A DNA stretch of 64,000 nucleotides, from positions 32,001 to 96,000 of the IMG/VR virus record IMGVR_UViG_3300028805_000056. One strand, 5' to 3'. The position numbers and the translations under genes are program-made. Every line of letters begins with the position of its first letter. Position 1 is the stretch's first letter. The DNA is from a virus. Its lineage: Duplodnaviria > Caudoviricetes. The notes under the pieces were generated by a model. The model was given only the letters and a program-made list of their open reading frames with translations, searched no databases and was not told the origin of the DNA. Below, one piece after another: positions 1-30,648 of the stretch.

Positions 1-18
1 AAAAAATATTTTCATAAT

Positions 19-219
19 TCAATTTTCTTTAAGTTCAATATTGTTATACCAGTCTATAAATTTAATCACCCATTCAAGACAAACATCAAAACATTGTATA
101 TCACCATTTTTAATATAAACAAAACCAATAAATACAAATGCTACAATGAATAGTACGGAAGCCAATAGCCACATTATTGGATACCCTAATAGCCACAATA
201 TTCTTTTAATGTAAATCAT
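19..219 (-). CDS. Small membrane protein, hypothetical
   Basis: 66 aa with a hydrophobic N-terminal segment; ATGA overlap with the upstream gene. Confidence 0.6.
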   Translation of the reverse strand: MIYIKRILWLLGYPIMWLLASVLFIVAFVFIGFVYIKNGDIQCFDVCLEWVIKFIDWYNNIELKEN

Positions 220-665
220 AATTCTATTTCTTTATCAATTCCACAAAGTCTAAGTGCATTTTGAAGTTGATGGACATATTTAATTGGCATCTCTGAAATC
301 ATTTCATAATGTAACCCGGCACTATTATCTTCAAAATAGCAACTCAATAATTTTACTTTTCTCCACCATGTAACATAGAATGAACCATAAGCACAACCAT
401 ATTGTACATCATCATCAACTACATCTATATTACTTTGTTCCCATCCATTCTTTTCAAGAATTTCTGGGGTGATAGGAATAGGTTTAATTTCATTAAGATA
501 TAGTTGAACATTATAGCCATTCTTATTTAAGACATCAACTACATATTCCATCTTATCATAATTGACTACCTCAATGCCTATTATTTTTGATGGTACTGGA
601 GTATTAAAATCAATTCTATAAACCCAATCTCCAATTTGAATCGAATCAATACTTAACTTTTCCAT
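216..665 (-). CDS. Phage hypothetical protein
   Basis: 149 aa ORF in a co-oriented array; motifs IQIGDWV, PIPITPEILEKNGW, IKYVHQLQNAL. Confidence 0.75.
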   Translation of the reverse strand: MEKLSIDSIQIGDWVYRIDFNTPVPSKIIGIEVVNYDKMEYVVDVLNKNGYNVQLYLNEIKPIPITPEILEKNGWEQSNIDVVDDDVQYGCAYGSFYVTWWRKVKLLSCYFEDNSAGLHYEMISEMPIKYVHQLQNALRLCGIDKEIEL

Positions 666-676
666 ATAAAACCTCC

Positions 677-799
677 TTATGCAAATAAACCTACAAGCAT
701 AGTTTTGTCAGCCCAAGCACAAACATCTTCAAAGCTAAAAAGTATTCCACTTTTAGAAGCACCTTTTGCTCCTAATTCTATTTCTTCTTTTCGTGTCAT
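677..799 (-). CDS. Small hypothetical, paralog family D (MTRKEEIE...WADKTM)
   Basis: 40 aa ORF read by hand (below the track cutoff); shares both motifs with 15840..16064. Confidence 0.55.
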   Translation of the reverse strand: MTRKEEIELGAKGASKSGILFSFEDVCAWADKTMLVGLFA

Positions 800-803
800 A
801 ACT

Positions 804-1199
804 TTAGTCTTTATAAAGATTATTTTCTTCTGTAACTTCAATAGCCAAATCTTTGGGAATTAAACCCATAAAATCAAAATGATGTTCAAGCAGCCAATTA
901 AATGCCTCTTCAGTGTGAGGAAATAAACCCGCTTCATAAACATTTAATCTATTGTATTCCTCTTCCTCTTCCTCAGTCATACTTGACATTGGACGGAGAT
1001 AGGGCTTAACACCATATTTTTCTATATGGTTTAATAAATTTATTGTAGAACCGTTTATTCCCAAATTAAGAACTTTATCACAATATGTTCCATTGTACGG
1101 AAATTCTTCTATGTGATATTCTGATAATATACATTTTACTCCATAAGGTAACGCCATACAGAGGTACTTCAGTAATAGTTCTTTATTTTCTGGTGCCAT
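804..1199 (-). CDS. Hypothetical, paralog family A
   Basis: KELLLKYLCMALPYG...KPYLRPMSSMTEEE...HHFDFMGLI motifs shared with 16863, 21518 and 52854. Confidence 0.8.
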   Translation of the reverse strand: MAPENKELLLKYLCMALPYGVKCILSEYHIEEFPYNGTYCDKVLNLGINGSTINLLNHIEKYGVKPYLRPMSSMTEEEEEEYNRLNVYEAGLFPHTEEAFNWLLEHHFDFMGLIPKDLAIEVTEENNLYKD

Positions 1200-1203
1200 A
1201 ATT

Positions 1204-1581
1204 TTATTCTTCCTCCTTTTCGTTTTCTTTAGCGATAGTATCTACATATCTTGTAAGTGCATCAACAACCTTGTCAGGAAGTTGTTTTACCTTGTTATTG
1301 CCTTTAATGTAGTCAATGGTGGTGCCTAAACCGTAGATTGCAAGCATTTCCTTACTTGACGGTGTAAAGATGTGTCCGAGAAAGCAGATGGTAAGCCCAA
1401 TGAAAAAGCCCTTGATGCTTCTAAACACAATTTTCTTGTGCAAATCATTATCTTCACAGAAGTCGTATATAAGCGGTATGAAAATAAGTACAAGTCCTAA
1501 AATAACAAAACCCAAAACCATACCCGCATTAAACATGTCGCCTAATTTACCAATGCGTGTAAGCCAATAAATTTCGTTCAT
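1204..1581 (-). CDS. Two-TM membrane protein, hypothetical
   Basis: Two hydrophobic segments; co-oriented array. Confidence 0.7.
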   Translation of the reverse strand: MNEIYWLTRIGKLGDMFNAGMVLGFVILGLVLIFIPLIYDFCEDNDLHKKIVFRSIKGFFIGLTICFLGHIFTPSSKEMLAIYGLGTTIDYIKGNNKVKQLPDKVVDALTRYVDTIAKENEKEEE

Positions 1582-1585
1582 AACT

Positions 1586-2740
1586 TTATTCTCCTTTCAG
1601 TCTTTCTTTAATTGATTTGAGCCAATTATCTAAAATAGCATGTTTGCCCCAAAGAGTTTCATCTTCAGTATCAATTTCATATTCCTCATACGCTTTTTTT
1701 ACAATAAGTTTATGTAATTGATTAAGATTTTCTTCATCTTCTTCACTCCATTCTTGTTTTGGATGCAAAAATACAATATCTTTAATTCTTTCAATAAGTG
1801 ATTTAATACGAATTGCTTGAGATGGAATCCATGTTGTTTCTGAACCATTTATACAATTATTACAAAGCCAAATAATGTTATTAAGGTCAGCTTCATCAAC
1901 ATCACTCAAAGTAGGACTTACTTTTTCGTCATTCATCATCTTAGTGAAACAATAGTCCATTTCAGACTTTCCTTCATCAATAACGTGAATTTTCTTCGGT
2001 TCTTTCTTTTCAGTATCCCATTCATATCCTGCTTCTTTCATCTTTTGGAATAAGTGGTCACGCTGCTCTTTGGTGGCAGGATATATATCAGAGCATCCAT
2101 AGCTATTATCAAAACCGTCATCTGCGGGAATTTCAAATTCTCCTTCACAAACAGAACAGTAGCATCTACAAGTTCCGTTACCAGTATACTCTTTGAAAAT
2201 TGCGGTAACTTTACCTAATTGAAGCACATCACCATCCTTTGCATCAGAAATATTCCACAATCTGAAATTTTTATGAACATCATTGAAGGTAAATGTTACT
2301 CGCCTACCTTTTAGATCTTCACAAACATAATAGTCTTTTACTTCTGTAACAAGATATATGTTATGCTTGAAACCTTCGGCACATCTAATAATCCAATCAC
2401 CAACCTTATAGAATACATTCCGCTGCATTTGGGTTGTATAGTAACCTTTAAATTGGGGTTCTTCTTGTTCACCCTGTTTTTCAAGCCATGAAATAACATC
2501 ATCTGGATTTATTCCCCAAGACTTAATACAACTTTGAGTTTCTGGTGCGTGAACAGCTTTTATTGCCATTTTTCTCATAACATCATCCTCACTCTCTATG
2601 AGTTCTGGGAGGATTTTTCTAACATCATCAGTAAAGATAGTTCCGCTTTTCTTAACAGTATTTAAATTAAGTATTACGTCAAATTTTTCAATAGCCTCGT
2701 CATAGCGCTTGGCTTTTTCTTCTATACTAAGTTCTTTCAT
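1586..2740 (-). CDS. Hypothetical modular protein, paralog family B
   Basis: Start taken at MKELS (ATGA overlap). Shares AKDGDVL, PATKEQRD.LFQKM.EAGYEWD and QEWSEED modules with 17266..18978. Confidence 0.8.
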   Translation of the reverse strand: MKELSIEEKAKRYDEAIEKFDVILNLNTVKKSGTIFTDDVRKILPELIESEDDVMRKMAIKAVHAPETQSCIKSWGINPDDVISWLEKQGEQEEPQFKGYYTTQMQRNVFYKVGDWIIRCAEGFKHNIYLVTEVKDYYVCEDLKGRRVTFTFNDVHKNFRLWNISDAKDGDVLQLGKVTAIFKEYTGNGTCRCYCSVCEGEFEIPADDGFDNSYGCSDIYPATKEQRDHLFQKMKEAGYEWDTEKKEPKKIHVIDEGKSEMDYCFTKMMNDEKVSPTLSDVDEADLNNIIWLCNNCINGSETTWIPSQAIRIKSLIERIKDIVFLHPKQEWSEEDEENLNQLHKLIVKKAYEEYEIDTEDETLWGKHAILDNWLKSIKERLKGE

Positions 2741-2892
2741 AGTTCTCTTAATTTGATTAGCCATTCAATTTCTTTATCATAATTAATCATCTTTTCCGCA
2801 GCAAGTGTATTTAAAGCGAGTATAATCTCATCTACAATACCCCTATCTGCTGCTGACATTTGAATAAATGCGCCTTTTCCTAATACTTTCAT
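2737..2892 (-). CDS. Small hypothetical protein
   Basis: 51 aa ORF (MKVLGKG...KLREL) read by hand; ATGA overlaps at both ends. Confidence 0.6.
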   Translation of the reverse strand: MKVLGKGAFIQMSAADRGIVDEIILALNTLAAEKMINYDKEIEWLIKLREL

Positions 2893-3206
2893 AATATTTT
2901 TCTTAGATTAGTTTTATCGTCTTTATATTCCTCAATAAGCCAATTAAGAAAGTCCATACGGCCAGTATCCCAAACATCTTGCTCCCACCACCAAGCACCT
3001 TTCTTTTCTGCTCCAAAATTAAGAGCTTCTTCTCTTCTAAATTTAGGGAAAAGAGAATGATAGTCTACATTGATATAAATTCCATAATCTATTAAAACTC
3101 TATCAATAGAAAAGCATAATCCCTCTCTTTTCAACTTCTTAGCTCTTTTAAGCACTTCCTTCCTCGTAACAGGAAGATTAAGTATATTACTAATAAATGG
3201 TATCAT
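2889..3206 (-). CDS. Hypothetical protein
   Basis: 105 aa, co-oriented array. Confidence 0.65.
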   Translation of the reverse strand: MIPFISNILNLPVTRKEVLKRAKKLKREGLCFSIDRVLIDYGIYINVDYHSLFPKFRREEALNFGAEKKGAWWWEQDVWDTGRMDFLNWLIEEYKDDKTNLRKIL

Positions 3207-3223
3207 AATTTAATTTATTTAAT

Positions 3224-3568
3224 TCACCAACAAATACTTGCTTGATAAGGATGCGGTATAAATCCTAAAAAACTAAATGGATAGTAAGAACCACAAGCAC
3301 ATCTCCAATAATTATCCTTTTTTTGATGTATGAAATAAAGTATCATACCATAAACAGGTGTTTTAGTTTCATCAAAGAATATCCTAACCTTATTTGCTTC
3401 TAATGTATTTCTATCATACAATTCATCGAATTCTTTTCTATGAGAAGTTTCTGCTTCTTGAATAATCAACCTCATATCACGTTCAATTGCACGAGAACAA
3501 TTATATTCTTTATCCCCATAGTTAAAACTATCCTCTTTTATTGGAATATCTATGTAATTTTTACCCAT
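3224..3568 (-). CDS. Hypothetical protein
   Basis: 114 aa, co-oriented array. Confidence 0.65.
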   Translation of the reverse strand: MGKNYIDIPIKEDSFNYGDKEYNCSRAIERDMRLIIQEAETSHRKEFDELYDRNTLEANKVRIFFDETKTPVYGMILYFIHQKKDNYWRCACGSYYPFSFLGFIPHPYQASICW

Positions 3569-3574
3569 AATTAA

Positions 3575-4051
3575 TCAAAGCATTAGATAGTCACGCACTA
3601 AATCTTCATTCTCTTTGAGGAACAGTTCTCTTTGTTCAGCAGTATGGAAAGCAATGAAATGATAGGCATTATAGCTGAGACCACAATAAAAATCATTTCC
3701 ATTCCTACAAATTGTATATTTGCCACAATTTGTTGGCTTTACCCACTCCTCTTCAGTAACAACACCACCAAACCTTTCATCATTAGCCATTATTTGGCTA
3801 ATTCTTGCCATAGCAAGTGCTGATTTAGCTTGCTTTTCTGTTGCAAAAACATCATAAGCGTTTAATATATTCCACTGTAGTCTAACGTACTTAACAGTGC
3901 CGCTTTGTAAAAAATAACCATTAAATTGAGCATTTTCATCATCTCTCCACCTTTTCTCTTGGGTTGGTTTGAACCTAATGCACTCAAAAGTAGAGTTTTC
4001 TTTGTCAATCTCGAAACCTTCTGGGGGTGTAATTTTAATTTCTTTTTCCAT
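3575..4051 (-). CDS. Hypothetical protein
   Basis: 158 aa; first gene after the promoter at 4083-4114. Confidence 0.75.
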   Translation of the reverse strand: MEKEIKITPPEGFEIDKENSTFECIRFKPTQEKRWRDDENAQFNGYFLQSGTVKYVRLQWNILNAYDVFATEKQAKSALAMARISQIMANDERFGGVVTEEEWVKPTNCGKYTICRNGNDFYCGLSYNAYHFIAFHTAEQRELFLKENEDLVRDYLML

Positions 4052-4082
4052 AGTTATTCACTTTTTCTTTTCATTTCTGCTG

Positions 4083-4114
4083 CAAAGGTACAACAATTTT
4101 TTGAAATGGCCAAA
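4083..4114 (-). promoter_or_regulatory. Bacteroidota sigma70-type promoter (conserved phage copy)
   Basis: TTTG-N20-TACCTTTG; near-identical copies elsewhere in the window. Confidence 0.85.
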
Positions 4115-4118
4115 TTTT

Positions 4119-4946
4119 TCAACAACTTTTTTTATTCTCCTTAATTAATGTGTTGGCAATATCCACATAATCTTCATTCATTTCAAGACCAATGAAATGC
4201 CTATTGCTCCGAATTGCCGCAATCGCAGTTGTTCCACTTCCGACAAACGGATCAAGAACAATATCCCCCTCATTTGTCCAAGACATAATATGCCTTAATG
4301 GTAATTCAATTGGAAATATTGCAGGATGTTTTATGTCTTCACCGTTTCTTGTCTTGAATACTCTCCTGTTCTGTGCGACGGCAATATCCCAATCCTGATA
4401 GTCAACCATCTCCTGATTCACATTGTAATCCAACTCCCGCCTTCCGTCTTCTCCACCAATTATCTTCGCTGTTGACGAATAATGTTTTCCTGCTGATTTA
4501 CAAGGTATCATAATCGGATTGAATGTTTTCGGCTTATTTCCTTTGACAAAACAAAACATAAACTCAATTCTTTTCGTATATCTCGGCTGTTTCACTTGTG
4601 GCATCGGATTCTTCTTCCTCCAAAACATATAATCATTTAACTTGAAACCACATTCATCCATAAAATACAACGCCTGACGCATTGATGTGCCTGTTTTCCC
4701 GCCGTTCTCTGTCTTGTCATCAACGTTCCAAATTAGAACACCACCATCCTTCAACACCCTGTAGAGTTCCTTGGCAATCTTCTCAAACTTCTCCCTGTTC
4801 CAACAATCCCTGCATGTATTATTATAATGTCTGAGGTCATCATATGGGGGAGATGTCACAATAAGGTCAATTGAACTGTCACTAATCTCTTTCAATAAAT
4901 TCTCAGAATCACCACAATATATCTTATCTAACTCTAACATACTCAA
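4119..4946 (-). CDS. DNA amino-methyltransferase (beta class, N4-C/N6-A)
   Basis: TSPPY catalytic motif N-terminal to the DPFVGSGTT SAM-binding motif. Confidence 0.92.
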   Translation of the reverse strand: MSMLELDKIYCGDSENLLKEISDSSIDLIVTSPPYDDLRHYNNTCRDCWNREKFEKIAKELYRVLKDGGVLIWNVDDKTENGGKTGTSMRQALYFMDECGFKLNDYMFWRKKNPMPQVKQPRYTKRIEFMFCFVKGNKPKTFNPIMIPCKSAGKHYSSTAKIIGGEDGRRELDYNVNQEMVDYQDWDIAVAQNRRVFKTRNGEDIKHPAIFPIELPLRHIMSWTNEGDIVLDPFVGSGTTAIAAIRSNRHFIGLEMNEDYVDIANTLIKENKKSC

Positions 4947-4982
4947 TTCATTTTAATGCTTCTTGCTTCATTTTAATACACA

Positions 4983-6317
4983 TTAAAACGATGCATTTTT
5001 TATATTCTCCAACTCCTCAAATGACAGGAATTTTGTTTCTTTATCAAAGAAACTTTTCATATATTCGAAATATCCTTCATCCAACTCGGTCATAAAGAAA
5101 TACCTTCCCATTTTATGAGCCACCCTTCCAAATGTCCCACTGCCACCGAACGGATCAAATACAAGGTCCCCTTTATAAGAATAGTATTCAATTACTCTTT
5201 TACACAGTTCTTCAGGGAATACGGCAGAATGCACCTTGTCAGACTTCGGACATATCTCCCATACGTTCGTGGTCTCAAATCCGTCACCAACCTTGCTATC
5301 TTCAATCACTTCATACGGATACTGACGCATATTCCAATCCAATAACCTGTCAGTCGGCTTTCTGTATACCATAAGATACTCTGTCACCGAATTCGGCTTA
5401 TAACCAAGCGGTTTCCTATGCTGACTGAAACCACCAACCCTGTTCTTCACACTATACTCAGGCTTCTTCCAAATAATATCATCTATGAATTCCCATCCCT
5501 GACTTACAAGTCTGCTATGAAGATCAAATGGTATGGGATATCTCTTGCTTGAGTGTGCCCTGCTTATTCTCGGTACGATAATCGGGGACGTGTTTACAAT
5601 AAGGAAACGCCCCTCCTTCGTGATTCTCATTACCTCCTTGAATACATTGTCAAGAAAATCGAGATACTCCTCATATGATTGATAAATCGAGTAGTCACGC
5701 GCATTGTAATACGGTGGGGAGGTGAATGTAAGATGAATACTTTCATCATCCAATAATTTCATTGCTTCAATGGTGTCACTATTGACTATCACATTATGAA
5801 TAAATGACGGACTGTCAACTTGACTGACCTTTTTCTCATTCTTATCCTTATTACTGAAATATTCTTTCTGAATGATACTTTGGACCGTTTCATTCTTGTT
5901 GGACAATAATCCCTTCAATGTTTCATCCACATCAGACCTTCCCTTGAACACCAACAGACCACGAATAGCCTGACATACAACCTTGGGGTCACTGTCATTA
6001 AGTATCTCGGACAATATCTCTATGTAATGCTCAGACCTTAAGCGACCAATTGCAGAAGCACATTCCCTTCTAACCGATGTACTACTGTCATTCTTATAAG
6101 TGTAATAATAAATTGGCACATATCTCATACTACATGTTTTACCAAGAGTCTTGATAGCCAATACACGGATTGTCGCATCGTCATGAGTCACAAGACACTC
6201 AATGGCATCAAGGTTCTCATTATGATCAACCTTGCCAATGCCCCTTAAAAATCCCCTTATCTCTTTTGTGCTAGCGGTATTTATCTCATCTATAGTCATA
6301 ACACCACAAATATACAA
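4983..6317 (-). CDS. HEAT-repeat domain fused to a beta-class DNA methyltransferase
   Basis: N-terminal HEAT-like repeats (IRVLAIKTLG, VRRECASAIG, VVCQAIRGL); TSPPY and DPFGGSGT motifs; true start may be MTIDE at ~6299. Confidence 0.85.
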   Translation of the reverse strand: MYICGVMTIDEINTASTKEIRGFLRGIGKVDHNENLDAIECLVTHDDATIRVLAIKTLGKTCSMRYVPIYYYTYKNDSSTSVRRECASAIGRLRSEHYIEILSEILNDSDPKVVCQAIRGLLVFKGRSDVDETLKGLLSNKNETVQSIIQKEYFSNKDKNEKKVSQVDSPSFIHNVIVNSDTIEAMKLLDDESIHLTFTSPPYYNARDYSIYQSYEEYLDFLDNVFKEVMRITKEGRFLIVNTSPIIVPRISRAHSSKRYPIPFDLHSRLVSQGWEFIDDIIWKKPEYSVKNRVGGFSQHRKPLGYKPNSVTEYLMVYRKPTDRLLDWNMRQYPYEVIEDSKVGDGFETTNVWEICPKSDKVHSAVFPEELCKRVIEYYSYKGDLVFDPFGGSGTFGRVAHKMGRYFFMTELDEGYFEYMKSFFDKETKFLSFEELENIKNASF

Positions 6318-6354
6318 AAAAAAAGCGTCCGAAACCGAACGCTTATCTTTTTTT

Positions 6355-8496
6355 TTAACTGAAATTCAATTTGACTTTCATAAGAATGGTTATTGTTCCA
6401 CCGGTATATTGACTACTCGTTTGGAATTGAACCCTACCGGATGACCCAGACTCTGTTGTTGAAGGATTGGTGTTGCTTGCAATCTGATACCTCGCAGCAC
6501 CACTGCCATATGACGACGGCATATAGAAACCTACATAATCAGGGAGATTTATAGTAGCCTGATTGAAATTGAACCCTGTGCTCGTATATGCGGCAGAATA
6601 AACCTTCAAGTCCTCCAATACAACTGTACAAGTCTGTCCTGTGCCAAGTGATGCATTATATGTCGGAGAAGTAACCCAGAAACCTTGTCTTGTACCACTG
6701 AACGTTGCACAGACATAGTCCTTGTAATCATCACCATAGTCTGAAGCCACATTATTTGCAACGGCGCCTGTCTTGCCTGAGTTGACCTCAAGATTGCTAT
6801 ATGTAACATATTCACTTTCATAGGTTTCGCCTGAGTCAGGAGTAACGTCACCAGGTACCTCAGTAAGGATAATTCTATCACCATAACTTGGACTTATATC
6901 AGTATCATCAGCAGATGTACCCATTCTATAACACCTCATTCTTAAGTAGGTGGCGTTTGGATACTGTTCCATTATTGCAGAAGCAAGGTCCTCGTTATCA
7001 TATACCCTGTCAAAGTAGTTTAGGGATGTTGACGTTGAACCTATCTTAGATGAAGAGGTGTTGAGACCTGTGTGTCCACTTAAACGTCCAAGACAAGCGG
7101 TGGCTGTGTTCGCCGAGAAACACCATATTGACAACTCTCTGATTGAATCCTCGTTCGTTTGGTCACCAATAGGCGGCTCCGTAGTCAGATAATAATGATA
7201 TCCTTGTGTAATAGGAATATAGGGTGATCTTATACAATATGTACTGGTTGTCTCAGCCGTCATGCTGAAACCACCTTGTTCCCAAGTTCCAATTGGTATT
7301 TCTTCACCCTCGTCAGGATTAACGCCACAATGCAATTCATATGTTGCAATTGGGAGATACCTGACATAAGTGTCTCCACTATAGCCCTGTTCCGTGCTTC
7401 CGTTCTGTGATGTGTTTATATTGAAGTCTATTCCCCTTATCACAACCTTGTCTTCATACACGTCCATTACACCGCCCTGAGATTCCAAAGGCTTCTCAAC
7501 ACGGTTCGTCGATGTCTCCTGTGATGTGTTTGTATAATCCGAATCAATTGGAAGGGCACATGACGGAATGTGGATTGTCCATGCACCTTCATTACCATAT
7601 CTTGCGATGTTCACATTTTTTTGGAAACGCTGAAGGTCCCACTTCCAATGTGAATGCCCACTGAACCAAAATACGTTTTTGTAATTTGAGAGGAGATTCA
7701 TCAACGCTGTAAGTCCCGAACCGCTTAACCAGTTTCCTGTGGGATATATTCCACCCGACCCGTTAACACGTCCCAAATTTCCCGCATACTCAGGAAAAAA
7801 GAGGTGTGTAAACACAAACACACGATTGTTCTTGAATGTCTCAAGAACACCACCAAGCCATGTTATATCATCTGCAAGATATGCATTTCCGGCAGAATAA
7901 TTGTACATCGAGAAGAAAACGAAAACGTCATCCACCGTGTCACCACTGCTGTTTTGGAATGAATGGGTAAAATAATATGAATTGGCATATGCGGAAGATA
8001 TGTTAAGTGTGTGAGTCGTGGTCTCAAGCGTTCTCCTTGTGTATGTGGGAAAAGTTGAAGCACCACTATGAGAACTGTAGCAATCATGGTTTCCTGTACA
8101 GGTATAGAATGGTGTGCCCGTCAGTATCTCGGCAACCGCACTCTGTGTCATTGTAAATTCACTGTTCTCGCCATACTGCGACAGGTCTCCGCTTGCACAC
8201 ACCATATCCACATGCTCATAGTCCCTAAGCCACTTGAATGCCCGCTTAAGGTCTCCCGCACCCTCATCTGAATAAGGATACGAATTCAAATACTGTGAGT
8301 AATTGTAGTCTGTGGTATCTACGTGAATATCAGACAGTAAGCCAACCTTGTATAATGGTGTCCCCTGGTTATTTTCCAAATTTCCTAAAGGTATTTCACC
8401 GACTCTCTTATTATTGCTGTCATATATCCCAATATATTTTGCCTCTCTTGGGGCAATGTTATGACTATTGAAACCACTATATGTATATTGTGCCAT
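6355..8496 (-). CDS. Calcineurin-like metallophosphoesterase with C-terminal extension (possibly virion-associated)
   Basis: SDIH, GDLS, GNHD, THL and GHSH motifs; S/T/G-rich tail. Confidence 0.85.
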   Translation of the reverse strand: MAQYTYSGFNSHNIAPREAKYIGIYDSNNKRVGEIPLGNLENNQGTPLYKVGLLSDIHVDTTDYNYSQYLNSYPYSDEGAGDLKRAFKWLRDYEHVDMVCASGDLSQYGENSEFTMTQSAVAEILTGTPFYTCTGNHDCYSSHSGASTFPTYTRRTLETTTHTLNISSAYANSYYFTHSFQNSSGDTVDDVFVFFSMYNYSAGNAYLADDITWLGGVLETFKNNRVFVFTHLFFPEYAGNLGRVNGSGGIYPTGNWLSGSGLTALMNLLSNYKNVFWFSGHSHWKWDLQRFQKNVNIARYGNEGAWTIHIPSCALPIDSDYTNTSQETSTNRVEKPLESQGGVMDVYEDKVVIRGIDFNINTSQNGSTEQGYSGDTYVRYLPIATYELHCGVNPDEGEEIPIGTWEQGGFSMTAETTSTYCIRSPYIPITQGYHYYLTTEPPIGDQTNEDSIRELSIWCFSANTATACLGRLSGHTGLNTSSSKIGSTSTSLNYFDRVYDNEDLASAIMEQYPNATYLRMRCYRMGTSADDTDISPSYGDRIILTEVPGDVTPDSGETYESEYVTYSNLEVNSGKTGAVANNVASDYGDDYKDYVCATFSGTRQGFWVTSPTYNASLGTGQTCTVVLEDLKVYSAAYTSTGFNFNQATINLPDYVGFYMPSSYGSGAARYQIASNTNPSTTESGSSGRVQFQTSSQYTGGTITILMKVKLNFS

Positions 8497-8502
8497 TTAT
8501 AC

Positions 8503-9837
8503 TTAACTGATAGTAAATTCTGTTATTTCATCCACTCTCTCCAATGGGGTTCTATTTGAATCCTCATAGAACATCTTATATGTTCCGCTTTCGAGTGCAT
8601 TATCGTTAATCGTAATTGTAAGGTCTGATGAAGTTTTGTTAACGGTTCCTATTTCAGGTATGCTTTCCATCTCGCCGCCATACATTAGGAATGTCGTGCC
8701 GGATACCGCTTCCCCATTTACATACACACCATTCACCTTCCTCCAAAAATCAACAAATGAGATGGATGTCCACACATTATTGGTTTTCATATGTATGCGA
8801 GAAACACTCTTCATTACACCGTCAATCTTCATATACAATTTCTTGGTGACTTCACTGACTACAATGGTATGACCCGTAATGACATTAGTCAAAGTATAAG
8901 TAAATGTACCATTACTACCGGTAAATTGACTTGTTATGTCACTTCCGTTATCAACAACACTCACCTTTGATATGTCAGACGTTGTCAGGGTAAGTAAACA
9001 ACTACCCCCCTCCTGTACACTTACCGGATTTGCTGTTATTGTAGCGCCAGTATAAGTGGACGATACATTTATCGAATATGACGCTAATCCCGGTTCAACC
9101 GTTAATGTATGGTCTGCATTTACATTGCTTAGTGTGTAAGTGTAATTTGATCCGGACCTCACAAGACTTGATGTGACATCCACATCATTGTCAAATAATT
9201 TAATATCAGAAAGCGAACCAACACCGGTAATCGTTATGACATTCGTGCCGCCACTTACCGTCTCACCGCTCTGAGCGGATATTCCTACACCTTGTACGGA
9301 AGAAGAAGTAGTTATAGCATAAAACGTTTCGTCCCAAGAATAGTTAACGGTTAAAGTAGCACCACGAAATCTAGCATTATAAGTTGTACCATTTGAAGTT
9401 CTATTGACTGATATTCTTAATTTTATATTATGTAATTCTTCGACATTCCAATTTCCTGGAGTTATTGAATAAACAGTACCCGTAGTAGCTGTACTGGTGA
9501 CTTGTACTTGCGAACCTTTTACAGTTGTTCCACTTGCTAATTGTAAATATGTATATCCCCTATTTGATCTAGAAGATGAAACAGAACAACGTCCAGAACA
9601 AGAAACAGACGTTATTGATGCATTTAATGGAATTGTTGTGGTACCGGAGAAATTATAAAACGCATATAACGTTTGATTATACACACCATTTAATGTTGCA
9701 TATGTGTTACTACCAGTATTTGTTACTGGATTTAAACCATTTTCCGTGTTTGCTGCGCTTTGTATGGTCGAGTTTGTACTATCATACGACGTTGGTATCC
9801 CCGTAAAGGTCTCATTATGTGTTACTATTCTACTCAT
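8503..9837 (-). CDS. Putative virion/tail-fibre-associated protein with Ig-like repeats
   Basis: S/T-rich; duplicated DN..D.TS...YTYTL.NV...HT..V units; TATTTAT motif upstream. Confidence 0.6.
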   Translation of the reverse strand: MSRIVTHNETFTGIPTSYDSTNSTIQSAANTENGLNPVTNTGSNTYATLNGVYNQTLYAFYNFSGTTTIPLNASITSVSCSGRCSVSSSRSNRGYTYLQLASGTTVKGSQVQVTSTATTGTVYSITPGNWNVEELHNIKLRISVNRTSNGTTYNARFRGATLTVNYSWDETFYAITTSSSVQGVGISAQSGETVSGGTNVITITGVGSLSDIKLFDNDVDVTSSLVRSGSNYTYTLSNVNADHTLTVEPGLASYSINVSSTYTGATITANPVSVQEGGSCLLTLTTSDISKVSVVDNGSDITSQFTGSNGTFTYTLTNVITGHTIVVSEVTKKLYMKIDGVMKSVSRIHMKTNNVWTSISFVDFWRKVNGVYVNGEAVSGTTFLMYGGEMESIPEIGTVNKTSSDLTITINDNALESGTYKMFYEDSNRTPLERVDEITEFTIS

Positions 9838-10098
9838 CTCTATTTATTTCCATTGATATAATAATAAATACTGAAAGTAGAATTAAATATGGGGTTATGC
9901 ATATAAAGAAAATAGCCGCATTTCTGCGACTATACCATAATGCTGCTCTTACTCATGAAGATATTTGTAGGCAGCAATGACCTCCTCGTCAGAGTAAAGA
10001 ATATCGTTGTCGATCACGTACAACGCATCTTTCTCGCAAGAGAAGGCAAGAGATTTCTCTTCTTCCATAGAATCTTGCTTTTAAGGGTTAAACAATTT

Positions 10099-10869
10099 TT
10101 ACAAATTTTCTTTTATCTTATTTAAGAATGAAATAATATATTCGTCATCTGCACCGCTCTTAACCAATTCTATAGCCTTATCCAACATTTGTCCAACATT
10201 TTCGTAGTCGGTGTCGTCACCGTATAATTTTCCGCCAAACCTATTGACAATTTGTCCGATAAGGTCATCATGATCAAATGCCCATTTAACATCACCCGCT
10301 TCAGACAGTGGCACCCACTTGATACCCCCGACTTCTCCATCCTCCATATTTTCCTTGGAGAATTTGTGACTTTCCATACCTCCGTTAAGGAATGAAACAA
10401 AATAGAATACAACATTCTGTCTATTCTCATTTGGACTTGAACTGTGTCCGATACACTTGATGTTTTGACATCTGATACCTGTTTCCTCGAAAACCTCTCT
10501 TGCTGCGGCTTCTTCTGCTGTTTCATTGTAGTCAAGATAACCACAAGGGAGATTCCAATAACCCTGATAATCAGGAGTACCGCTTCCACGTTCGTTAGCG
10601 AGGACGTACCATTGTCCATTATCATTTAATAGTACGGCAGTTGCAACAGCGACAGAACGGCTGAACCATTGGCTTGGTTTTCCGTTTTCATCGTATCCCT
10701 GTCTATTCTGCATAGAGGAGTCAACTCCCCATCCTTGTCCGCCTTTCTTTATTTCATTTCCGTATTTGTCGTATTTCTTAGGGGTGGTTTCCTCCTCCTC
10801 ATTCAAAAGGTTCTTTATCGTTTCAGATAACCATTGTGTAAGTGCAGGTTCAGTTATATGTTTATCCAT
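10099..10869 (-). CDS. NUDIX hydrolase
   Basis: Nudix box GYLDYNETAEEAAAREVFEETGI; AFDH motif. Confidence 0.9.
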   Translation of the reverse strand: MDKHITEPALTQWLSETIKNLLNEEEETTPKKYDKYGNEIKKGGQGWGVDSSMQNRQGYDENGKPSQWFSRSVAVATAVLLNDNGQWYVLANERGSGTPDYQGYWNLPCGYLDYNETAEEAAAREVFEETGIRCQNIKCIGHSSSPNENRQNVVFYFVSFLNGGMESHKFSKENMEDGEVGGIKWVPLSEAGDVKWAFDHDDLIGQIVNRFGGKLYGDDTDYENVGQMLDKAIELVKSGADDEYIISFLNKIKENL

Positions 10870-10901
10870 TAATGTATTCTTTTATAATAATTACCTGTTA
10901 C

Positions 10902-11150
10902 TTACTTTTGGTTGACCTTTTCTTCAATATAATCACAAAAACGGGATAATGTTTTTAGATGAGCCATCTCTTCACTTTTTGCTTTGAAACCGAAACTCTT
11001 GTGTAAGAATACAATAACTTGTACAAAATCAAGACTGTCTATTTCCAAGTCCTCTTTAAGACGCGCCTCAGGATGAATCCTATCCTTAGGAATCTCAAAA
11101 TCAACAATTAAAAAATTTCTTACAATTTCTTCTATTTCTTGTCTTGTCAT
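10902..11150 (-). CDS. acpP: Acyl carrier protein
   Basis: 82 aa, acidic, with the DLEIDSLD phosphopantetheine attachment motif. Confidence 0.85.
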   Translation of the reverse strand: MTRQEIEEIVRNFLIVDFEIPKDRIHPEARLKEDLEIDSLDFVQVIVFLHKSFGFKAKSEEMAHLKTLSRFCDYIEEKVNQK

Positions 11151-11173
11151 ATAAAACAGTATAATAAAAAATG

Positions 11174-11809
11174 CGGAGGCTGAGGGATTCGAACCCCCGG
11201 GACGCTGTTAACGCCCGCCGGTTTTCCATTACCACACTATGTTACCATAGCCAAACAAATGTGGACTGTTACTTTTGACTGCTTATGCTTTTACATGGCT
11301 CCTTTCAAAAGCTGTCTTTCGGTAATGTTTGTTGTAGTCTGGGACATATTAGTACCATATTGAAATCCTTGCAAGACAATGCCCTTATTATAGCGCTTTT
11401 AAGCAGATTGTTTTCTCCATATTAGTACAATCATTTCGCGGCATTATACGTCATTTCAACTTAGGCATCTCCTCTATGTTCTCTACACATTTATGAATTA
11501 TAATAGGACTCGAACCTATATTTCCGCCAATTACATCTTTACTCATTTCTGAGCCGATGAGTATATAATTCAATTTAGCTCGGTATTATCCTTACACATT
11601 ATTGGTTAGTGTGTAGATTATAATAAAAGTGCTTATTTATGAGATAAGCATCTGATAACGCTTCCCTTAAATCTACTTGGGGCACTTATCTTACTTTTAT
11701 ATTTCTAAGGACTTCCACCGAATTAGGGAGATTCTACTATGGGATTTCTCGCCATAGCACTCGAATTTGTTTCAAGACCGGTGCAATAGACCAACTCTGC
11801 CAAACCTCC
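11174..11809 (-). tRNA. tRNA-Ser(UGA) interrupted by a group I intron (exons 11774-11809 and 11174-11226)
   Basis: Acceptor GGAGGTT/AGCCTCC, G73, long variable arm; spliced anticodon arm CCGGT-CT-T|GA-AA-ACCGG. Confidence 0.9.
11227..11773 (-). ncRNA. Group I intron (IC3-like), 547 nt, no ORF
   Basis: P1 CUUGAA/UUCGAG with U.G at the splice site; P3 ATCTCC/GGAGAT; P/Q/R/S-like elements AATTCGGTGGAA, AATACCGAGC, GTAGAGAACATA, ATATGTCC; terminal G. Confidence 0.88.
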
Positions 11810-12165: not shown

Positions 12166-12226
12166 TGTTTTTCCCCCTCCTTCTTTGGATTCAGAAGTTA
12201 TGAGACCGCCGTCTCATTTTTTTTAG

Positions 12227-12309
12227 AGCCTTCTGTTGGATTCGAACCAACGTGTCCTTACGGATCCACATTACAAGTGTGGCGCAATCGGCCGCTATGC
12301 GAAGAAGGC
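12227..12309 (-). tRNA. tRNA-Thr(UGU) with an atypical long variable arm
   Basis: GCCTTCT/AGAAGGC, U73; CCACA-CT-TGT-AA-TGTGG; extra arm TCC-GTAA-GGA. Confidence 0.85.
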
Positions 12310-17265: not shown

Positions 17266-18978
17266 TTATTCTTCCTCCTTTTCGTTTTCTTTAGCGATAG
17301 TATCTACATACACAGCAGCATCGTGTAAAGCATCTAATTGTTCATCACTAGGCTTCCAATTAGGTTGAACTCTTTCTTTGAGTGATTTGAGCCAATCTTC
17401 TATTTCTTTTTTATCATCATAAGTATAATAGTCTGCTGCATTTATAGCACCAATAGCGTCATCAATCATTTTATCATCCTCTTCACTCCATTCTTGTTTT
17501 GGTACAAGTTCTAAGAGAATATTTGCTTGTTCCTTAATTGCATTAGTATCATTTGGGTCTAATCCTGCATGTTGACCAAAGAAAGAAATTCCTATATGCA
17601 TCATTACATTCTCAAAGTCAGTCAAAGCATCTGTATTTTCTTGTTTCCACTCATACTTTGGCTGAGGTTGTATTCTGTCTTTAAGTGATTTGAGCCAATT
17701 ACGCAATTCCTCTGCGTAACCCTCGTCAAAGCAATCATTAATTGCAAAATTTACATCAAGAAGATAGTCTTCATCATCTTTACTCCAAGCAGAACTTACT
17801 TTTTCACCATTCATCATTTTAGTGAAACAATAGTCCATTTCAGCTTTGCCTTCATCAATAACATGAATCTTCTTCAGTTCTTTCTTAGCAGCATCCCATT
17901 CATATCCTGCTTCATGCATCTTTTGGAATAAAATGTCACGTTGTTCTTTGGTGGCTGGTAAATAGTCTATAGGACTTATTCCTCCAACTTCAAACCAATA
18001 CCCGGTTCTATTGTTAATACCACAATGAACAAACATACTCCTCCTGACCATATCATATATATTTTTCTTATATATTACTGTGTCAATTCCATCACAAAGC
18101 ACATCGCCATCCTTTGCATCTTGGATAGTCCATAGATGATATAAAGAATCTATTTCAGAAACAAGCATATCATCAACATACCCTCCAACGGTTTCATAAC
18201 AATAGTACTTATCCCCAACACATCGAATCTTCAATAAATTGCAACCTTGTACTACCCAATCACCAACCTTAAACCTTGGTTCAACTTTATCAGCGGGTTT
18301 TGATTCATCTTGTTTTTCAATATCATAAAGAAATAACATACAATCTTTTGATATAGTAAAATCAGGAAGTCCTGTAGTGCCATTAGAATAAAAAGATACT
18401 AAATTTTCTTGCTCTGATTGATGTGTGTAACAAGTAATTATTTCATCTTCTTCATCTACTTCTGCAAGCCAAAGTTTGCCATATAGGGGAGAGTACAATT
18501 CTGTTCCTCTTGGATAATGTTTCAATATTTCTACAAGATTTATTTCCTTTTTCTCACCTTGCTTTTCAAGTCTATACTCATCAGCGAGTTTACCATTCTC
18601 GTCCATTATTTCTGCTGACTTTAAAAACTCTTTTGCTGTTTCTTCAGTTTCAGTGGCTTTCTTAGCGACTCGTTCAAGTTGACTTACATTAAAGCAAGTT
18701 CCATCTTCATTTTTGTATACTTTAGTTGCATTATCATCTCCATGCTCAAACTTATACCTTACTTGCTTTTCAAGCCAAACAACCCATCTTTTACATCCTG
18801 TTGACTTATCAATGTAATCAAGAATTTCTTTCCTTATCTTCTCATCCTCGCTCTCTTCTTTCTTGACTATAATCTTGCCATTTTCAATGCTTGCTGTGTA
18901 ACCTTCTGGTATATTGTATTCCCAACCTTCAAGTTCACTATCTTTAATACCGAATGCTTTTTCAATAAATTCTTTCAT
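17266..18978 (-). CDS. Hypothetical modular protein, paralog family B
   Basis: Shares modules with 1586..2740; repeated WS..D...WLKSLK.R units. Confidence 0.8.
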   Translation of the reverse strand: MKEFIEKAFGIKDSELEGWEYNIPEGYTASIENGKIIVKKEESEDEKIRKEILDYIDKSTGCKRWVVWLEKQVRYKFEHGDDNATKVYKNEDGTCFNVSQLERVAKKATETEETAKEFLKSAEIMDENGKLADEYRLEKQGEKKEINLVEILKHYPRGTELYSPLYGKLWLAEVDEEDEIITCYTHQSEQENLVSFYSNGTTGLPDFTISKDCMLFLYDIEKQDESKPADKVEPRFKVGDWVVQGCNLLKIRCVGDKYYCYETVGGYVDDMLVSEIDSLYHLWTIQDAKDGDVLCDGIDTVIYKKNIYDMVRRSMFVHCGINNRTGYWFEVGGISPIDYLPATKEQRDILFQKMHEAGYEWDAAKKELKKIHVIDEGKAEMDYCFTKMMNGEKVSSAWSKDDEDYLLDVNFAINDCFDEGYAEELRNWLKSLKDRIQPQPKYEWKQENTDALTDFENVMMHIGISFFGQHAGLDPNDTNAIKEQANILLELVPKQEWSEEDDKMIDDAIGAINAADYYTYDDKKEIEDWLKSLKERVQPNWKPSDEQLDALHDAAVYVDTIAKENEKEEE

Positions 18979-18980
18979 AA

Positions 18981-19232
18981 CTATTCTCCTTTCATGTATT
19001 CTATAAAATCCTTAACCATTTCTTCTTCGGTGTCAAATTGATATGCTATGACTCCGCATTCATCGTGACCTAAGTTATTATTAAACCAAATAGCCGCCTT
19101 TTGGATAAAGGCATCAGTTCGAGTGTATTCAATATTTTCTGCCCCTTTAACTGGAGCCTCTTTCCACAGCGTCTTACCTTTATCATTGTCAAGGTATGTT
19201 GTTGTACGAAAAATCTTGTCAGGTGTTTTCAT
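18981..19232 (-). CDS. Hypothetical protein
   Basis: 83 aa; array member. Confidence 0.65.
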   Translation of the reverse strand: MKTPDKIFRTTTYLDNDKGKTLWKEAPVKGAENIEYTRTDAFIQKAAIWFNNNLGHDECGVIAYQFDTEEEMVKDFIEYMKGE

Positions 19233-19561
19233 AATTCATACGGAAATTCTTCATCTATTTTTTTCCACAATCCATCTCGTGTGCACCAAGTTAACTTAAT
19301 TCTGTTATTTAATTGGTCAATTTCAAGTTTATCTTGAGGATGTTCAAGTGACATACGACGAAGGACTTTAACCATTACCATTTTATCTGCATTACGACTT
19401 GGGTAATGGTCATATATATCTACCCATTCTCCTTCATTCTTATATAGCTTTTGAACAAACTCATCAACCATACGTGTAGTCGAACCATTCATTCTGGTTC
19501 TCATATTTGCTATAGATTGCAAAAACTCTTTATCTTCTTTTTCAGTTTCAGGTGTTTTCAT
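19229..19561 (-). CDS. Hypothetical protein
   Basis: Start taken at MKTPETE to avoid overlap. Confidence 0.6.
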   Translation of the reverse strand: MKTPETEKEDKEFLQSIANMRTRMNGSTTRMVDEFVQKLYKNEGEWVDIYDHYPSRNADKMVMVKVLRRMSLEHPQDKLEIDQLNNRIKLTWCTRDGLWKKIDEEFPYEL

Positions 19562-29976: not shown

Positions 29977-29985
29977 TTTATTTTG

Positions 29986-30648
29986 TGCGCAAGTCGGGAC
30001 TCGAACCCGAACGGGCATAATGCCCAGCAGATTTTCCTGCTACTCTATGTTACCATAGCCAAACAATGAGTGATGCTGGACAATAATATTTCTGCATTAT
30101 TTCAGCAGGCACCATTTTAACGTCCTATAGTCTATTGTTTGTTGTAGTCTGGAACATATCATTACCATATTGAAATTCTTCGAAGTAGGAAGCATCAGTT
30201 TTTTTTTAACTTTCTTATATATTCAATCATTATCGAAATAACATGTATTTTCTTACTGAAGTGATATATTACTTTTCTTCCAATTTCAACTTAGGTATCT
30301 CCTCTATGTCCTCTACACATTTATGAGAATCTTTCATCCTTTCTCAAGGGCTATCTTCTTCCATTTTATTGATAGCATCTTCTCAATTTAGCTCGGTATT
30401 ATCCTTACACATTATTGGTTAGTGTTTAATACTTTGGACAAGCAGTCTGATACCAATCACATTTAACTTTCTCTTCTCTATGACTAAGAGTGTGAATCTA
30501 ATATTGAGCCTGATATATTACAACCATATTTTTCTTTGGCAATTAATTAAAAGGACTTCCACCGAATTAGGGAGATTCTACTATGGGATTTCTCGCCATA
30601 GCACTCAATTTAATAAGTCTGCCGCGTCTACCATTCCGCCACAAGCGC
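29986..30648 (-). tRNA. tRNA-Leu(UAA) interrupted by a group I intron (exons 30615-30648 and 29986-30035)
   Basis: Spliced arm GCAGA-CT-T|AA-AA-TCTGC; Leu-type D-arm and variable arm; A73. Confidence 0.88.
30036..30614 (-). ncRNA. Group I intron (IC3-like), 579 nt, no ORF
   Basis: P1 CUUA/UGAG with U.G; core blocks nearly identical to the Ser intron; ends in G. Confidence 0.88.

Follow-up and report, generated by a model that had tools for sequence, protein, structure and literature searches.

What interrupts the anticodon loop of the tRNA-Ser(UGA) gene at 11174-11809 of this phage DNA, and what would be needed for the gene to yield a usable tRNA? The gene lies in a 64-kb stretch (the window) of a 148.5-kb virus record from a large gut or rumen phage, and an earlier note had proposed that a group I intron of 547 nt sits after U34 and that its removal restores a normal Ser(UGA) cloverleaf. 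Default ARAGORN and Rfam at gathering thresholds reported 19-21 tRNAs in the window and none at 11174-11809. Once introns were permitted, ARAGORN returned a minus-strand tRNA-Ser(tga), c[11173/4..11809], whose anticodon loop holds an insert of 547 nt, and at default thresholds it called the joined exons as a 90-nt, class II tRNA-Ser(tga) with a long variable arm and G as the discriminator. The boundary can be shifted over 4 nt, since both junctions carry GAAA, and all four possible placements give the same mature tRNA. We fixed the intron boundaries by the U(-1)/omega-G rule, since only one placement, U34/G35, has both a U at -1 and a G at the intron 3' end; the loop order at the site is then C32 U33 U34 / G35 A36 A37 A38. 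The insert after U34 is thus borne out by ARAGORN together with the boundary rule, and the restored cloverleaf by the call on the joined exons. The gene is laid out as follows.

11774 to 11809, minus strand: exon 1 of tRNA-Ser(UGA), with the acceptor 5' strand, D arm, anticodon stem 5' strand, and C32 U33 U34 (ARAGORN -i)
11227 to 11773, minus strand: probable group I intron, 547 nt, no ORF, starting at G11773 and ending at omega-G11227 (U(-1)/omega-G rule, covariance model R1, covariation)
11174 to 11226, minus strand: exon 2, with G35 A36 A37 A38, anticodon stem 3' strand, long variable arm, T arm, and acceptor 3' strand (ARAGORN)

With this boundary the mature anticodon loop is the 7-nt CUUGAAA, closed by a stem that the exons form as CCGGU/ACCGG, and the predicted ligated junction is CCGGUCUU joined to GAAAACCGG. 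The discriminator is G11174, and CCA is not encoded. Uninterrupted versions of the same gene are found elsewhere: the tRNA-Ser(UGA) of MT837178, a human faecal phage scaffold (L002 907-992), has a 5' half 100% identical to exon 1, that of Lak-A2 is also uninterrupted, and the exact empty-site 22-mer is present in 73 IMG/VR contigs. The occupied Ser junction was found in no further IMG/VR contig. The split gene is the sole tRNA-Ser on the 148.5-kb record, where UCA, the commonest choice within the UCN box, makes up 27% of Ser codons. Since the phage fragment has no other tRNA-Ser, a usable phage-encoded tRNA requires splicing.

Our reading, to which we assign a probability of roughly 85%, is that 11809-11174 is a phage tRNA-Ser(UGA) gene split at U34/G35 by a 547-nt, ORF-less group I intron. 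At the level of sequence, the group I identity is supported by three lines of evidence: a covarying architecture, a match to a covariance model of bacterial introns, and a guide that matches both exons. The helices follow the order seen in compact bacterial introns, namely P1, P2, P3, P4, P5, P6, J6/7, P7, P3', CCUAAG, and P8, and then J8/7 (UAUGGU..), P7', P9, and, last, a terminal GNRA hairpin with a short tail whose final base is G. The individual elements are listed from the 5' splice site onward.

11760 to 11776, minus strand: P1, exon C11776 U11775 U11774 plus intron G11773 A A against U11765 U C G11762 A G11760
11737 to 11757, minus strand: P2 hairpin, CUAUGG / CCAUAG, with a 9-nt loop containing GAAA
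11727 to 11732, minus strand: P3 5' strand AUCUCC, partner 11472-11467 (pairs accepted by model R1)
11706 to 11721, minus strand: P4 5' strand 11721-11716, J4/5, and P5 5' strand 11711-11706 (alignment pairing counts)
11595 to 11705, minus strand: peripheral extension of P5, about 110 nt and branched, with a conserved hairpin whose loop is UAACCAAUAAU (internal pairing read by hand)
11580 to 11594, minus strand: P5 3' strand 11594-11589 and P4 3' strand 11585-11580 (aligned by model R1 to the bacterial consensus AAUaCCGAGC)
11494 to 11572, minus strand: P6, 11572-11564 with 11502-11494, closing a tRNA-shaped insert (inner pairs covary)
11467 to 11493, minus strand: J6/7, P7 5' strand, and P3 3' strand GGAGAU 11472-11467 (90% identical to the primase gap of cr116_1)
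11360 to 11459, minus strand: P8, 11459-11453 with 11366-11360, bearing an extension of about 85 nt (covariation)
11341 to 11359, minus strand: J8/7 (UAUGGUACUAAU) and P7 3' strand 11347-11341 (the UAUGGU and ..GUCCAGAC blocks are common to bacterial tRNA introns)
11252 to 11331, minus strand: P9, CAAACA 11331-11326 with UGUUUG 11257-11252, closing a 68-nt extension (covariation)
11227 to 11250, minus strand: terminal hairpin CUAUG-GUAA-CAUAG (GNRA loop), 3' tail UGUGGUAAU, and omega-G11227 (99% paired)

The elements that the earlier note had named, a P1 helix placing U.G at the 5' splice site, P3, P4, and P7 core elements, and a terminal G (G11227), could all be located. Within P1 (CUUGAA/UUCGAG), the wobble at the 5' splice site is U11774.G11762, read from the sequence and in agreement with the minimum free energy (MFE) fold, which also recovers P1. 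The UUC at 11765-11763 can in addition pair with the 3' exon G11226 A A and is a candidate P10. The 5' strand of P7 consists of G11483, a bulged A11482, and G11481-U11476. G11481-C11342, with the bulged A11482 and G11483-C11341, looks as a guanosine-binding pair should and is invariant in 34 sequences, and we presume by analogy that the G11481-C11342 pair is the guanosine-binding site. It is adjoined by a mismatch in P7, A11480 opposite C11343; the same A.C occurs in one other family member (L003), whose core is otherwise intact.

The structure of the Ser intron was derived by hand and then counted on tool-made alignments of related phage introns. In 20 sequences of subfamily A, 94.5% of cells were paired, compared with 36-48% when the 3' partners were slid by 1-3 columns, and both-side changes occurred in 20 pairs compared with 6-11, a control that is somewhat favourable to the structure because the structure was derived from the same sequences; none of 500 shuffles reached the observed measures. 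Across 34 sequences from both subfamilies, for P3, P6, P7, P8, and P9, the corresponding figures were 93.6% paired versus 31-50% when slid, with both-side changes in 22 pairs. P2, P4, and P5 were counted on subfamily A only, because MAFFT loses register across both subfamilies. Compensatory changes fall mostly in P2, P6, P7, P8, and P9. P2 is 100% paired in the 20 sequences with both-side changes in 4/6 pairs, P8 is 99.6% paired in the 34 sequences with both-side changes in 6/7 pairs, and P9 is 100% (20 sequences) or 95% (34 sequences) paired with both-side changes in 6/6 pairs. P7 is 98.6-99.2% paired and includes compensatory changes. Within subfamily A, P4 is 99% paired and adds one U-A/A-U swap, P5 is 86% paired, and the loop motif UAACCAAUAAU of the P5 extension is kept throughout. 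P3 is invariant across the phage family; its columns do covary, and strongly, in the bacterial relatives.

Covariance models gave a divided answer to the check that the earlier note had suggested: the Rfam model came out negative, and a model of bacterial tRNA introns came out positive. Rfam RF00028 (Intron_gpI) scored the locus at 12.6 bits (E 1.5-3.7) against a gathering score of 50 bits, with only P1-P6 and P3' aligned. The same model passes only 2/10 bacterial split-tRNA loci tested and misses 8/10, and, according to Williams 2020 (bioRxiv 10.1101/2020.01.27.920355), none of its seeds is bacterial. Bacterial introns were sought with a 22-base pattern from the core of the phage family (GTAGAGACTA..CCTAAG..TATGGT). 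The pattern retrieved at least 120 bacterial loci, 94 of which ARAGORN identified as split tRNAs, both classical and newer types, with Leu(UAA), Met/Ile2(CAU), Arg(CCU), Asp, Asn, Thr, Tyr, His, and Ile(UAU) as hosts. Model R1 was built from 50 non-redundant bacterial tRNA introns, which are compact (about 190-260 nt), with P2, P3, P4, P5, P8, and P9 paired, and was run unfiltered over both strands of the window (128 kb). Its best match was the Ser intron, 11779-11449, at 22.8 bits (E 1.1e-6), a match that in the J6/7-P7, CCUAAG, and UAUGGU blocks arises partly by construction because the training set was selected with a phage-derived pattern, and that in P1-P6 lies outside the selection pattern. 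Next came two pieces of a second intron, in tRNA-Leu(UAA) (E 7e-4 and 1e-3), and the 3' end of the Ser intron (11340-11224, E 0.13); background began at E 0.68. On these comparisons, the intron core is shown to be homologous to the group I introns of bacterial tRNA anticodon loops. A class IA2 (T4 td-like) assignment suggested by the motifs CAUAAAUG and GCUAAAUUG was considered and dropped: the core aligns with bacterial tRNA introns, and the P7.1/P7.2 of IA2 introns are absent, with only CCUAAG between P3' and P8 and the extension placed inside P8.

The failure of the Rfam model could also be taken to mean that the insert is no ribozyme at all: it could be a protein-removed insertion resembling the "enigmatic" introns in Lak phage tRNA genes, or an artefact of assembly. 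Devoto et al. 2019 (PMC6784885) did describe introns in phage tRNAs for which Rfam gave no class. We consider this extremely improbable, given the covariation in nine helices of group I topology, the covariance-model match, the matching of guide and exons, and the recurrence of this architecture, which dozens of independent contigs share and the 148.5-kb record holds twice.

The guide sequences are best seen across the family to which the group I intron belongs. Its J6/7-P7-P3' block matches, at 90% identity, the gap that separates two "primase" CDS in the crAss-like phage cr116_1, and exact-pattern scans with the core found 20 IMG/VR loci, 69 metagenome loci, and a second copy in the same window. 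Requiring U(-1)/omega-G boundaries and joined exons that form a normal tRNA yielded 43 split tRNAs, distributed over the following hosts and sites.

Leu(UAA), after U34: 27 of 43 split tRNAs
Arg(UCU), after U34: 8 of 43
Arg(UCU), after U36: 4 of 43
Met/Ile2(CAU), after U36: 3 of 43
Ser(UGA), after U34: 1 of 43 (11809-11174)

The ARAGORN labels "Ser", "Phe", "Stop", and "SeC" on several split tRNAs were rejected as mis-registered Leu(UAA) or Arg(UCU) and were corrected by the boundary rule and guide pairing. Taking the guide triplet as the three bases that precede UGC/UGA at the start of P2, it is complementary to the last three exon bases in 43/43 cases (GAG/CUU, GGA/UCU, GUG/CAU, and one AAG/CUU). 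The base pair at -1 is U.G in 42/43 split tRNAs and U-A in 1/43. The exception is a Leu(UAA) intron (L012 483-958) with the guide AAG rather than GAG and thus U-A at the 5' splice site; this copy may be impaired, or the change may be tolerated. The 3-4 bases on the 5' side of the guide triplet likewise track the 3' exon (UUC/GAA in Ser, UUU/AAA in Leu, and AG/CU in Arg after U34), with a mean of 2.41 contiguous P10 pairs to the intron's own exon versus 0.90 to the exons of other host classes.

The second copy in the window is the sibling of the Ser intron, and these two are the only introns in the 148.5-kb record, in its sole tRNA-Ser and its sole tRNA-Leu(UAA).

29985 to 30648, minus strand: tRNA-Leu(UAA) gene split after U34 by a sibling intron of 579 nt, 30614-30036 (model R1 matches)

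The two introns share a 5' segment of 62 nt that is 98% identical, the guide GAG, and the site after U34, whereas the P10 guide is AUU in Leu and UUC in Ser, and the extensions in P5, P6, P8, and P9 are unrelated.

Family members also occur outside recognisable tRNA genes. The cr116_1 copy (MT774389, about 18819-19411; L001 1346-1938) is an unannotated intron between the "DNA primase" and "DNA primase/helicase" CDS, with guide GAG, after an exon ending ..CUCUU, and L013 and L024 are arranged in the same way. In IMGVR_UViG_3300021254_000026 (L004, ~5150-5800), an intron with guide GAG has a tRNA-like 3' end just upstream and T-arm-like sequence downstream, and no split tRNA could be reconstructed around it. 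Complete family copies without a recognisable tRNA host were found at L149, L152, L167, L170, L195, L196, and L203. Two longer members, L184 4941-5748 (794 nt) and L189 426-1135 (696 nt), carry large insertions after P3 or in P6.

Four extensions of 60-110 nt, in P5 (11705-11595), P6 (11563-11503), P8 (11452-11367), and P9 (11325-11258), set the Ser intron apart from the compact form (about 200-300 nt) of bacterial-type tRNA introns. None of the extra length encodes a homing endonuclease, as the earlier note had stated: under code 11 the longest stop-free run within the insert is 49 codons, and 71-74 codons when TGA or TAG is read through. The two small ORFs have no Pfam match, and no endonuclease ORF emerged under recoded stops. 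The P6 insert has the outline of a tRNA, with a 9-bp closing stem, UA, a D-like hairpin, a T-arm look-alike (AUAGG-UUCGAGU-CCUAU), and 22 unpaired-looking bases in place of an anticodon arm and variable loop. We considered whether P6 encloses a working tRNA of its own and rejected the idea, as ARAGORN calls a tRNA-??? only at its 80% threshold and the Rfam tRNA model has no match on this strand; nor did ARAGORN at thresholds of 90-100% find nested tRNAs in 34 family introns. T-arm look-alikes, with a 4-5 bp stem, compensatory stem changes, and a 7-nt loop of the UUCGAAU type, number 8 in 34 non-redundant family introns, compared with 0.63 on average and at most 3 in mononucleotide shuffles. 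They lie in the P6/P9 peripheral domains of L003, L006, L008, L150, L212, and L214 and at 11503-11519 in the window, and they could be captured pieces of tRNAs, or modules for folding or protein binding.

These features bear on whether the intron could fold unaided. An alternative to an autonomous ribozyme is a group I intron that is unable to self-splice, its AU-rich core and extensions needing a phage or host protein such as an RNA chaperone or a maturase-like factor. In its favour are a G+C content of 35% and the A.C mismatch in P7, the extensions in P5, P6, P8, and P9, which are unique to the Ser copy or present in one relative only, and a weak overall stability (z = -1.78 for the whole-intron fold relative to shuffles); the recurring peripheral T-arm look-alikes could be handles for protein binding. 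The single-sequence MFE fold reproduces P1, P2, and the terminal hairpin and misses the long-range core. Against a need for protein stand the family consensus of every core helix and junction motif and the presence of the same mismatch in L003 with its otherwise intact core, and no candidate cofactor gene was identified. We regard protein-dependent splicing as unlikely, though a possibility to be kept in mind. The P7 mismatch, the low G+C with the large extensions, and the weak overall fold also count against our main reading.

Nucleotides 15-204 of the Ser intron, from P2 to P4' and including the entire P5 extension, are 99.5% identical to an intron (L189) that splits a tRNA-Arg(UCU) after U36 and has the guide GGA. 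The two introns differ in the first 14 nt, which comprise the P1 loop and guide, and are unrelated from P6 onward, and the P8 extension of the Arg intron is that of the Leu intron in the window. These shared blocks indicate that the family, which is drawn from gut and rumen phage contigs and has Leu(UAA), Arg(UCU), Ser(UGA), Met/Ile2(CAU), and a crAss-like primase gene as hosts, is a mosaic in which conserved core blocks act as crossover points. Reaching the Ser site needed little or no change of guide, because one Leu copy (L007) already bears a UUCGAG guide and the loop bases C32-U33-U34 are shared by Leu(UAA), Arg(UCU), and Ser(UGA). The near-identical block, the L007 guide, and the empty Ser site in 73 other viral contigs make it conceivable, although we put this forward only tentatively, that the Ser copy is a very recent arrival from another tRNA site and would provide a natural before-and-after record of a gene-less intron relocating. 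The route could have been either reverse splicing or DNA recombination between intron copies. If the copy did arrive in this way, and if it moved by reverse splicing followed by copying back into DNA, the family would make a long-proposed route testable, and the T-arm look-alikes might be captured pieces of target tRNAs.

The same comparison bears on the possibility that the intron is dead, leaving the tRNA-Ser as a pseudogene and the phage reliant on the tRNA-Ser of its host. The lone occupied junction among IMG/VR contigs in which the empty site is common, the mismatch in P7, and the unique extensions in P6, P8, and P9, which could be disruptive insertions, would fit such a decay. However, the two exons show no damage and together fold as a normal tRNA, the conserved core blocks, the U.G wobble, omega-G, and a Ser-specific P10 guide are all in place, and the 99.5% identity of a 190-nt block to a relative argues for recent insertion, not long decay. 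A dead intron is thus improbable.

An active group I intron would be expected to work as follows. The pre-tRNA would fold so that the guide UUC-GAG (11765-11760) pairs with the exon CUU and the first intron bases, which places U11774.G11762 at the 5' splice site. Free guanosine, bound at G11481-C11342 of P7, would then attack the 5' splice site, and the terminal G11227 would subsequently occupy the same pocket while UUC pairs with GAA of the 3' exon (P10). Exon ligation would generate the CUUGAAA anticodon loop. Guanosine binding, both transesterifications, and splicing itself are predictions from the DNA sequence.

The closest known systems are bacterial. In Williams 2020 (bioRxiv 10.1101/2020.01.27.920355), the four classical bacterial tRNA introns are assigned to subgroup IC3 in the database cited there, and the list of bacterial tRNA group I introns is extended to 21 tRNA/site types. 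The bacterial IC3 introns include those in Leu(UAA) after U34 ("Leu.3Ug", cyanobacterial and plastid), the Azoarcus-type Ile(CAU), Arg(CCU), and fMet. They share with the Ser intron an anticodon-loop site, U.G at -1, and omega-G, and the U34|N35 site is that of Leu.3Ug. Also common to both are the blocks GUAGAA..AAUUCGG, AAUaCCGAGC, GUGUAGAG, CCUAAG, UAUGGU, and GUCCAGAC and the terminal GNRA hairpin, which in the bacterial introns likewise takes the form of a hairpin (with a GAAA loop) followed by a ..GGUAAG tail. In contrast to the bacterial introns, the Ser intron is phage-borne, measures 547 nt rather than about 190-260 nt (the 50 introns of the model), has extensions in P5, P6, P8, and P9, differs in P3 and part of P7 through compensatory changes, and fails the Rfam threshold.

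The earlier note had also remarked that Ser(UGA) was not a host it recognised for group I introns, and this part of its claim is weakened. The seed alignment of Williams 2020 (bioRxiv 10.1101/2020.01.27.920355) contains a bacterial tRNA-Ser intron, "Mun3.Ser.3Ug", so that a tRNA-Ser host at the U34 site is already recorded for bacteria. In the first alignment blocks, this intron matches ours in isotype (Ser) and in site: it follows the third base of the loop, with -1 occupied by U and omega by G. Its P1 reads CUUG/CGAG, compared with CUUGAA/UUCGAG here, and it is compact and resides in a bacterial genome. The kind of intron, and even the Ser site, are therefore already known from bacteria, and what we describe is a well-supported annotation, not a new mechanism.

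Among phages, the likeness to T4 td-type IA2 introns is that both are phage-borne, that some copies are ORF-less, and that the present family, too, has a copy inside a protein gene (the cr116_1 primase). A 2014 review of bacterial group I introns placed all phage introns then known in protein genes (PMC3984707). No subsequent publication that assigns a phage tRNA intron to group I turned up in our literature search, so tRNA group I introns in phages seem not to have been described in print. Devoto et al. 2019 (PMC6784885) reported Lak megaphage tRNA inserts that Rfam left unclassified, one of them possibly encoding a tRNA. These "enigmatic" introns resemble the Ser intron in being anticodon-loop inserts of phage tRNAs, and the possible inner tRNA recalls the tRNA-shaped P6 insert. 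Two oversized tRNA-like genes in the tRNA arrays of other gut phages were also noted: one of 187 nt in Lak-A2 (L289 566-752), with a 114-nt insert, and one of 102 nt (L002 1161-1262), both too short for a group I core.

The practical consequence is for annotation. Standard tRNA finders and Rfam miss the split gene, so that the phage appears to lack tRNA-Ser and tRNA-Leu(UAA) though it carries both, and split tRNAs missed in this way affect tRNA inventories and codon-usage arguments for large phages. The family also offers dozens of natural variants of one ribozyme, with rewritten guides and swapped peripheral modules, as a system in which to study changes of target. Elsewhere in the window, the minus strand at 12226-12309 encodes a tRNA-Thr(UGU) of 84 nt whose variable arm is a 13-nt stem-loop, unusual for a threonine tRNA.
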